Origin: a virus
Taxonomy: Duplodnaviria; Heunggongvirae; Uroviricota; Caudoviricetes
Virus record (IMG/VR): IMGVR_UViG_2880412407_000002
Direction: 5' to 3' (one strand)
DNA length: 64,000 nucleotides
Shown here: piece by piece, positions 21,354 through 22,261 of the stretch
Position numbering within the stretch: position 1 is the stretch's first letter
Layout of the letters: the number at the start of each line of letters is the position of its first letter
The notes under the pieces: model-generated
Told to the model about the DNA's origin: nothing
Seen by the model: only the letters and a program-made list of their open reading frames with translations
Database searches by the model: none
Translations under genes and position numbers: made by a program

Positions 21354-21641
21354 TCAGATAGAGAAGGGAAATTGTCGCCGAGAATGTGTCACGCTTACAA
21401 TCTCAATGCTTGAAGCAGCTACTCTGTACAGGATTATGTAGTTAGGGTGGGTCACGATCTCTCTCAATCCAGAAACCCGTTCGCTTGGTGGATATAAGTA
21501 CGGATGCTCAGATAGAGGTAATACCGATGTTTCAATGCGTATTTTTAGTCTACGTGCTGCCGGTGGGTTCTCCTTGGCGATGTAAGTTATGATCTGGCGC
21601 AAATCATCGCGAGCAGACGGTAGCCATAAAATGGGTAACAT
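21354..21641 (-). CDS. ParE/RelE-family type II toxin
   Basis: 95 aa; start overlaps the upstream antitoxin stop; C-terminal YIILYRV...IEIVSVTHSRR typical of the fold. Confidence 0.65.
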   Translation of the reverse strand: MLPILWLPSARDDLRQIITYIAKENPPAARRLKIRIETSVLPLSEHPYLYPPSERVSGLREIVTHPNYIILYRVAASSIEIVSVTHSRRQFPFSI

Positions 21642-21832
21642 TACTCGCTCTTGTTAGTTACAGCAATTTGAGCAATAAGATTTTCCATTTCAGCCATTAC
21701 CTCGTCATGTGGAATTGCGGGGCGAGTGTCTGCAAGGCTTGACGTTACTTTAGTGCGCAACCATTCGTTGTAACTGTTTTCTTGTTCGGTAGTTTCGAAT
21801 TCTGAAACTATCGGAGAAAGGGCTGTACCCAT
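21641..21832 (-). CDS. Putative ParD-like antitoxin
   Basis: 63 aa, immediately upstream of and overlapping the toxin. Confidence 0.5.
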   Translation of the reverse strand: MGTALSPIVSEFETTEQENSYNEWLRTKVTSSLADTRPAIPHDEVMAEMENLIAQIAVTNKSE

Positions 21833-21859
21833 GGCATAACTCCTCTTCTTGTACTGTGG

Positions 21860-22261
21860 TCACGCCCGGCGGCTTTTTTGTGCCGCCAGCCACCTAGCAA
21901 TGGTTTCTTCCATTGATTTTTTCTTGTCTTTGATTTCTTGAAGCATTTTTTCTTGGTCTTCCTCAGGAAACGCACTAAAAGCTTGGAGCAGTTCGCGTTG
22001 GCGAGGACCAATTTTCATCGTGTCAGGGGTGAAAATTTGCTCACACTCTTCAGGAGGCAATAAAAACCAATGCAATGGATGCCCTGAAACCTCAACCAGT
22101 TTATCCAAACTTGAGGCTTTAGGTGTAGCCTTACCGCTGACCCATTGTTGAACAGTTTGTTGTGTCACACCAATTCTACGGGCAAGCTCAGCCTGGCTCC
22201 ATCCAGTTTCCTGAAGAAGCTTGCTGATTCTGTACATAGATACTTCTAGGGCGCTCATCAT
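21860..22261 (-). CDS. Prophage repressor, XRE-type HTH (DicA/CI-like), no peptidase domain seen
   Basis: N-terminal HTH ISKLLQETGWSQAELARRIGVTQQTVQQW; divergent from cro-like gene. Confidence 0.75.
   Translation of the reverse strand: MMSALEVSMYRISKLLQETGWSQAELARRIGVTQQTVQQWVSGKATPKASSLDKLVEVSGHPLHWFLLPPEECEQIFTPDTMKIGPRQRELLQAFSAFPEEDQEKMLQEIKDKKKSMEETIARWLAAQKSRRA

Follow-up and report, generated by a model that had tools for sequence, protein, structure and literature searches.

A paaR-paaA-parE toxin–antitoxin locus in the immunity region of an Sp4/CP-933M-type lambdoid prophage

The closest described relatives of the locus reported here come from Escherichia coli O157:H7. According to a secondary account (PMC4803016), two three-component paaR-paaA-parE systems were described by Hallez et al. 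(2010, Mol Microbiol 76:719), and each antitoxin of the O157:H7 systems neutralises its own toxin and not that of the other system. One of them, paaR2-paaA2-parE2, sits on the cryptic prophage CP-933P/Sp12 and was dissected by Jurenas et al. in 2021 (mBio; PMC8630535). On CP-933P, paaR2, paaA2 and parE2 form an operon, and the DNase footprints of PaaR2 cover the intergenic region, with PR and PL repressed and PRM activated at low level. The paaR2 mRNA is leaderless, as is that of lambda cI, and the switch as a whole is bistable (PMC8630535). Two neighbouring genes complete the picture: YdaS competes for the PaaR2 sites and acts as Cro (PMC8630535, PMC9986795), and YdaT acts as CII and activates a PRE-type promoter (PMC9986795).

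The antitoxin of this system, PaaA2, is a substrate of the proteases ClpAP and ClpXP and carries no DNA-binding domain (PMC8630535). The toxin ParE2 induces the SOS response when overexpressed and co-localises with the nucleoid (PMC8630535); it is reported neither to bind GyrA59 nor to inhibit gyrase (PMC10886550). Structures from the CP-933P system have been solved (3ZBE, 5CW7, 5CZE and 5CZF). The locus is able to stabilise a mini-F plasmid by post-segregational killing, and ParE2 activity was never seen in single cells at steady state (PMC8630535). It is for this last reason that the biological benefit of the module stays a proposal.

Phage lambda offers a more distant comparison. There, rexA-rexB lie directly downstream of the repressor gene and are expressed in the lysogen. 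An analogy between rexAB and the CP-933P pair was already printed in 2023 (PMC9986795). It is worth pointing out that the functional experiments cited here belong to the CP-933P paralogue, and that the Sp4/CP-933M copy, to which we assign our locus below, is known through statements made in reviews.

The three genes, their published counterpart and their distribution

In the 64,000-nucleotide stretch of DNA that was analysed (the window), three genes lie in the order R-A-E on the minus strand. The first, paaR (21860-22261, 133 aa), carries an HTH_3 domain and encodes a DicA-like immunity repressor of the PaaR1 type, the predicted analogue of CI. It is followed by paaA (21641-21832, 63 aa; PF21217) for a PaaA1-type antitoxin without a DNA-binding domain, and by parE (21354-21641, 95 aa; PF05016) for a ParE1-type toxin. 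A gap of 27 nt separates the paaR stop from the paaA ATG, a GAGGAG Shine-Dalgarno sequence sits 7 nt 5' of that ATG, and the paaA TAA (21643-21641) shares one base with the parE ATG (21641-21639) in the string TAATG. The first-pass annotation, made from the letters alone, had described a toxin–antitoxin pair with overlapping stop and start that follows a DicA-like repressor directly and in the same orientation, and it was right on both counts. A pattern scan of the stretch from paaR to parE found no promoter- or terminator-like site on the minus strand, and the three genes are predicted to be one transcription unit.

The toxin matches the Pfam ParE_toxin family across the full model (PF05016, E 2.9e-17; 63.5 bits, cut-off 23), and the PDB search led to E. 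coli O157 ParE2 (5cw7_B, E 3e-36, 67% identity). A ParE fold had been proposed for it, and the profile search does assign it to a toxin family. The proposed antitoxin partner was also borne out in kind, although not in family. It had been called ParD-like; its sole Pfam match is PaaA2 (PF21217, "stability determinant", E 5.6e-19; 68.3 bits, cut-off 27), it scores 92 bits on the NCBIfam model NF050103, whose cut-off is 50, and its PDB match is PaaA2 itself (3zbe_A, E 1.4e-20, 62% identity). In the Pfam search it showed no RHH, HTH or AbrB domain, and no ParD/RHH family matched at E <= 0.1 in Pfam and NCBIfam combined. Because of the matches to ParE2 and PaaA2, and of the conservation across 437 genomes described below, we take these small open reading frames to be real genes and not products of chance.

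The HTH_3 domain of the repressor is recognised by Pfam at 2.3e-12, and a BLASTP alignment with K-12 DicA gives 28% identity over 111 aa (residues 22-129, E 4e-14); the motif ELLxxFxALPExxQ at its C-terminus is also found in K-12 DicA. The NCBIfam DicA model NF007257, however, aligns to residues 11-130 with 51.5 bits, which is under its cut-off of 101 bits. On these alignments PaaR is a homologue of DicA, yet no DicA by NCBI's own threshold. Its 35 Pfam matches include no Peptidase_S24 domain, and PaaR2 likewise is without the S24 autocleavage domain (PMC8630535). Searched against the PDB, PaaR returned generic HTH domains (434 repressor, E 3e-5), with no PaaR2 structure among the matches, and PADLOC gave generic HTH matches only. 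Compared with PaaR2 the protein is a mosaic, with 26% identity in the N-terminal HTH domain and 60% over the C-terminal 50 aa.

All 908 nucleotides of the segment 21354-22261 are identical to ECs_1067-ECs_1069 in prophage Sp4 of E. coli O157:H7 Sakai. In that genome parE corresponds to ECs_1067 ("plasmid stabilization system protein"), paaA to ECs_1068 and paaR to ECs_1069 ("phage repressor protein"). The likeness extends well beyond the three genes, since positions 14962-33627 of the window (18.7 kb) are 99% identical to Sakai Sp4. The flanks differ: Sp4 in Sakai has a yccA flank, whereas the Sp4-like prophage in the window abuts the tail of another prophage and an espK region. Sp4 is the Sakai counterpart of CP-933M in EDL933 (PMC2884950), and our link to CP-933M is drawn through Sakai Sp4 and this equivalence. 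A homologue of paaR2-paaA2-parE2 was indeed placed on CP-933M by Jurenas et al. (PMC8630535).

How many such loci a genome carries also bears on the assignment. O157:H7 genomes have exactly two matching places. In the second, taken from an O55:H7 genome, the repressor starts with MQKKE and the proteins match the PaaA2 and ParE2 of the PDB entries; MQKKE is the sequenced N-terminus of PaaR2 (PMC8630535). Given the identity to Sp4, the equivalence of Sp4 and CP-933M, and the two places per O157:H7 genome, the locus in the window is, by sequence, the first of the two systems of Hallez et al., paaR1-paaA1-parE1. The name is used here as secondary sources give it. The numbering of the toxin differs among them, "paaR1-paaA1-parE3" being printed in PMC3141249, so which number the toxin first received is uncertain.

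Out of 5,426 complete E. coli genomes, 437 carry the 908-nt segment at 99% identity or more, and most of these belong to Shiga-toxin-producing lineages. A tblastn search of 50,697 phage genomes found a homologue of the toxin in one, phage Evi, and the trio of Evi is of the CP-933P type and not of the Sp4 type. Five loci, including the E. coli variants L007, L008 and L009, keep the same order of genes, namely dicB...ydfB-ydfA, then parE-paaA-repressor, then cro-like-ydaT-replication, and the proteins of variants with this order are 62-86% identical. The HTH domains of the five repressors fall into four types that are less than 30% identical to one another, and the C-terminal segment is conserved in all.

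Operators, promoters and divergent neighbours

The immunity region around the operon was compared with that of CP-933P feature by feature. Upstream of paaR, the intergenic region towards the divergent cro-like gene measures 108 nt and contains an OR-like palindrome (22298-22336) with two arms of 15 nt, 100% complementary and 9 nt apart. It overlaps TTGATT-18-TAGGCT on the plus strand, and an additional half-site repeat lies at 22342-22356. At the other end of the operon, an OL-like palindrome (21259-21307) has two arms of 21 nt, 90% complementary and 7 nt apart; the two palindromes are 79% identical over 39 nt. Inside the OL palindrome is a strong PL-like promoter on the minus strand, with TTGACA at 21288-21283 and TAGATT at 21264-21259 separated by an 18-nt spacer. 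This promoter was found by the standard sigma-70 scan, matches 10 of the 12 consensus positions, and lies in its palindrome in the same register as the TTGATT-18-TAGGCT pair does in OR. It reads into ydfA-ydfB, DicF (19631-19682; Rfam, 77 bits), dicB, exo and int. The first-pass annotation had located the toxin–antitoxin pair between the repressor and a left-operator palindrome and likened this to the position of rexAB; with the pair downstream of the repressor and ahead of OL/PL, the comparison stands, and it agrees with the analogy published for the paralogue (PMC9986795).

PR and PRM escaped the standard sigma-70 scan, both being under the consensus threshold. The predicted -10 element of PRM, TAAAAT (22268-22273, minus strand), lies 6 nt 5' of the paaR ATG, and was assigned by a relaxed scan, which gave GTGCTT-17-TAAAAT, together with comparison with CP-933P. 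No Shine-Dalgarno sequence was seen upstream of the paaR ATG. The arrangement in CP-933P is GATAAT-6-ATG, and there, by 5' RACE, the transcript begins with the A of the start codon (PMC8630535); in three more variants the distance from the -10 to the repressor ATG is 6-7 nt. By analogy, we infer that the paaR mRNA would be leaderless as well. Where the transcript might end is suggested by a predicted intrinsic terminator at 21320-21335 on the minus strand, in which the hairpin TCCCTCTTTCGAGGGA is followed by TTTTTTT. It lies 19 nt past the parE stop and is present in the minimum free energy fold, where it is weak and not significant against shuffled sequences (z = -1.2).

Two genes are divergent from paaR. 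The first, a ydaS-like cro analogue (22370-22642, plus strand, 90 aa), matches Pfam YdaS_toxin at 8e-10 and PHROG 35, transcriptional repressor, at 9e-29. The Pfam name YdaS_toxin is a misnomer for a cro analogue. The second, ydaT (22626-23051, plus strand, 141 aa), is the CII analogue, with matches to Pfam YdaT_toxin (1.2e-9) and to PHROG 163, CII-like activator (4e-46). Their relations to CP-933P are very different. YdaT is 86% identical to its CP-933P counterpart, and the ydaS-like protein is 23% identical to CP-933P YdaS, a value consistent with a different immunity specificity. At the junction of ydaS and ydaT lies the operator OM, TTGATTCATGAAAATCAA (22619-22636), a predicted YdaT site of a PRE-type leftward promoter. 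The published YdaT site is TTGATT-N6-AATCAA (PMC9986795), and OM is its sole perfect match in the window.

Taken feature by feature, the locus is like CP-933P in gene order, in the divergent ydaS-ydaT pair, in the flanking OR and OL, in the 6-nt distance between the -10 hexamer and the repressor ATG and in the YdaT operator. It departs from CP-933P in the operator arms, which are of the ACAATAAAAAACTGT type here but follow the GTTTAGTAA consensus there, and in the low identity of the repressor HTH (26%) and of the Cro analogue (23%). Since the HTH domain, the Cro analogue and the operator sequences all differ, we regard the locus as a heteroimmune version of the CP-933P system.

Proposed mechanism and competing readings

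Very probably, the locus is a paaR-paaA-parE type II toxin–antitoxin operon in the immunity region of an Sp4/CP-933M-type lambdoid prophage, and works as an addiction module. In the mechanism that we propose, PaaR, as the analogue of CI, would bind the OR (22298-22336) and OL (21259-21307) palindromes. It would thereby silence the rightward ydaS/cro-like, ydaT/CII-like and replication genes, as well as the leftward genes read from PL (ydfA, ydfB, dicF, dicB, exo and int), and control its own PRM-type promoter. From PRM would come a tricistronic paaR-paaA-parE mRNA, probably leaderless and ending at the hairpin at 21335-21320, and a second, PRE-like leftward transcript could be supplied by YdaT acting at its operator (22619-22636). 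The control of the operon by a separate repressor follows from the nature of the antitoxin, because a PaaA-type protein has no DNA-binding domain. PaaA, small, largely disordered and labile to proteases, would wrap around the stable ParE and neutralise it. If a cell or a recombinant lost the operon, it would make no new PaaA, and the freed ParE would kill it; the immunity region would thus be stabilised. The suggestion in the first-pass annotation that the pair stabilises the prophage agrees with experiment, given that the paralogue stabilises mini-F by post-segregational killing (PMC8630535).

The Sp4-type copy thus probably uses the promoters, terminator and killing logic of CP-933P. We infer the same mechanism from the shared OR and OL, the spacing of the -10 element and the YdaT operator. 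The use of the operators and the behaviour of the switch are extrapolated in this scheme, since the HTH domain and the Cro analogue are essentially unrelated to those of PaaR2 and YdaS.

There is another way to look at a toxin–antitoxin pair in this position, which is to see in it primarily an anti-phage module, expressed in the lysogen in place of RexAB and acting by abortive infection or exclusion. Several type II and type III toxin–antitoxin systems abort phage infection. An infecting phage that stops host transcription, or speeds the turnover of PaaA, might likewise leave ParE free to abort the infection. The pair does fill the exact slot of rexAB and is predicted to be transcribed with the repressor, as in CP-933P (PMC9986795), its antitoxin is of a protease-labile kind (PMC8630535), and the module has stayed there under immunity repressors of at least four unrelated specificities, as would cargo that benefits the lysogen. 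Yet no PADLOC defence model matches either the toxin or the antitoxin, and neither shows homology to RexA or RexB in Pfam, PHROG or PADLOC; a Rex homologue is therefore rejected. Our literature search found no report of phage protection by PaaA-ParE or of superinfection exclusion, and in the CP-933P paralogue transcriptional activation failed to release the toxin (PMC8630535). We hold such a primary role to be improbable, although it could coexist with addiction. The same low expectation goes with the more specific proposal that the pair has been kept in the rexAB slot because abortive infection protects the lysogen, over and above addiction, with the halted resynthesis of PaaA as the trigger. 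Were it true, the conservation under at least four unrelated repressors would reflect selection for defence, and it would be through the target of ParE, for which gyrase was reported negative in ParE2, that phage replication is blocked.

A decaying prophage could also carry the genes as an inert remnant, intact by descent and neither expressed nor functional. Prophages of the CP-933M/Sp4 type are regarded as cryptic (PMC8630535, PMC9986795), and a homologue in just one of the 50,697 sequenced phage genomes would suit this reading. It has to be set against three intact open reading frames at 99% identity or more in the 437 complete genomes, and against the retention of gene order in variants whose proteins have diverged to 62-86% identity. 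The cognate-only neutralisation, as given in the secondary account, implies that both pairs are active (PMC4803016), and the CP-933P paralogue is addictive (PMC8630535). An inert locus is accordingly very unlikely in our judgement. Even less credit can be given to two further readings. In a canonical two-gene ParD-ParE system, as in RK2, the operon's promoter would be bound by the antitoxin itself, the toxin would poison gyrase and the repressor would be a mere neighbour. What the locus shares with ParD-ParE of RK2, Caulobacter and Vibrio is a toxin of the ParE family (PF05016), matched across the full Pfam model, and the SOS induction and nucleoid co-localisation of the overexpressed paralogue (PMC8630535) would fit as well. 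Against it, the 63-aa antitoxin belongs to the PaaA family and is no RHH ParD, no promoter-like site was found 5' of paaA, and the operon is regulated by a third protein, the repressor being part of the published operon (PMC8630535); the paralogous ParE2, moreover, is reported not to inhibit gyrase (PMC10886550). From its RefSeq name, "RelE/ParE family toxin", and that of its partner, "RelB family antitoxin", the toxin might equally be taken for a ribosome-dependent mRNA interferase of the RelE type, and the NCBIfam model TIGR02385 (RelE_StbE) does score 28.4 bits, just above its cut-off of 27.9, with the antitoxin model NF050103 carrying the name "RelB family antitoxin". But BLASTP against RelE and RelB of E. 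coli K-12 gave no match, ParE2 is by far the closest solved relative, and the phenotype of the paralogue is one of SOS and nucleoid localisation and not of translation arrest (PMC8630535). Either of these two readings is hardly believable.

An addiction operon of the paaR-paaA-parE kind, the reading we prefer, is one that is already known. The identical locus was published in 2010, and there is nothing new in the three genes. As a discovery it carries small weight, with the locus named and tested in 2010, the regulation of its paralogue dissected in 2021 and the rexAB analogy printed in 2023. Its value is one of calibration: raw sequence alone was enough to recover correctly how a lambdoid immunity region and its cargo are built.

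Comparison with lambda and Qin

The likeness to lambda cI-rexA-rexB is one of position and of transcription logic, in that cargo is found directly 3' of the repressor gene, on the same strand and before OL/PL, and would be expressed in the lysogen. The cargo itself is different. Here it is a toxin–antitoxin pair, of a kind for which addiction was shown in the paralogue, whereas rexAB is an exclusion system. The repressors differ too, as PaaR is without the S24 autocleavage domain of lambda CI.

The dicA-dicC region of Qin, a cryptic prophage of K-12, is similar in another way. It has a repressor homologous to that of the window, and in both regions ydfA-ydfB (97% DNA identity) and dicF-dicB (86%) are found downstream. 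Qin, however, has no toxin–antitoxin pair, and its dicA stop is separated from the ydfA start by 166 nt, compared with 782 nt here. On account of these distances, and of the missing pair in Qin, paaA-parE, the terminator and OL look as if they had been inserted or replaced at the junction between the repressor gene and ydfA. The paaA-parE pair thus looks like inserted cargo, with a DicA-type repressor gene on one side and OL/PL on the other.

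Repressor genes upstream of paaA-parE

The repressors encoded 5' of paaA-parE in the window (21860-22261), in the CP-933P-type locus L003 (4491-4862) and in the E. coli variants L007 (2997-3395), L008 (2996-3394) and L009 (2956-3456) were compared with one another and with K-12 DicA (L005, 2935-3342), and those of the five paaA-parE loci are mosaic. Four types of N-terminal HTH domain, with less than 30% identity between types, are found among them. Over the final ~50 residues (ELLQxFxAFPEEDQ...IARWLAAQK), identity among all five loci is 48-94%. This combination of divergent HTH types with a common C-terminal segment suggests that recombination breakpoints lie within the repressor gene, and that the C-terminal domain may move along with the toxin-antitoxin cargo. 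The same C-terminal motif is shared by DicA; no toxin-antitoxin pair lies downstream of dicA.

The five loci have a second feature in common at the start of the repressor gene. In every one of them the ATG is preceded at 6-7 nt by a -10-like hexamer (22268-22273 in the window, within the stretch 22262-22273), and no Shine-Dalgarno sequence is present 5' of the ATG. For L007 and L008 this distance agrees with translation starting in frame at an ATG that lies three codons 5' of the annotated start. The close hexamer, together with the missing Shine-Dalgarno sequence, implies that the predicted repressor mRNAs would be leaderless throughout the group.

The YdaT operator and misleading database names

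The published operator of YdaT is TTGATT-N6-AATCAA (PMC9986795). It is matched without mismatch by TTGATTCATGAAAATCAA at 22619-22636, the sole zero-mismatch match within the 64 kb window, and this candidate operator sits where ydaS stops and ydaT starts. The CII-like PRE circuit known from CP-933P therefore seems to be conserved in the present heteroimmune prophage.

Experiments have identified YdaS and YdaT as Cro- and CII-like regulators rather than a toxin-antitoxin pair (PMC8630535). The genes in 22370-23051 are thus misnamed both in Pfam (“YdaS_toxin”, “YdaT_toxin”) and in RefSeq (“toxin YdaT family protein”). Judged by sequence comparison, the RefSeq label “RelB family antitoxin” for PaaA is likewise a misnomer; no similarity of PaaA to E. 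coli RelB was detectable by BLASTP.

Other genes of the Sp4-like element and its surroundings

In the PL operon, the DicF antisense sRNA (19631-19682, minus strand; Rfam RF00039, 77 bits) lies 5' of dicB (19257-19445), an arrangement also seen in K-12 Qin, where the block is 86% identical to the window at the DNA level. Between ydaT and the replication genes is an “ECs1072 family” gene of uncharacterised function (23258-23713, minus strand), which overlaps the 5' end of the opposite-strand O-like replication gene (23681-24916, plus strand). The latter is an uninterrupted 411-aa ORF in the window. Its counterpart in strain 2014C-4423, which is colinear apart from this, carries a frameshift according to the annotation, and the Sakai version has a reduced length of 1092 nt.

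Two lambdoid prophages stand head to tail here (1-14960 and 14962-33627). The first stretch holds the tail genes, a Lom-like gene, the tail fibres and the T3SS effector gene espK (13024-14385, minus strand) of one element, and the integrase gene of the Sp4-like element (15197-16216) directly follows them; in O157:H7, by contrast, the Sp4-like element adjoins yccA. Downstream of the Q antiterminator region lies the Sp4 ileZ-argN-argO cluster, a set of three tRNA genes carried by the prophage (33338-33584, plus strand), and after it comes the STnc100 sRNA (34357-34529, plus strand; Rfam, 104.7 bits). The Sp4-like prophage also carries a second toxin-antitoxin system, of type I, made up of hokD and the sok antisense RNA (28439-28764, plus strand; Rfam RF01794, 107 bits).
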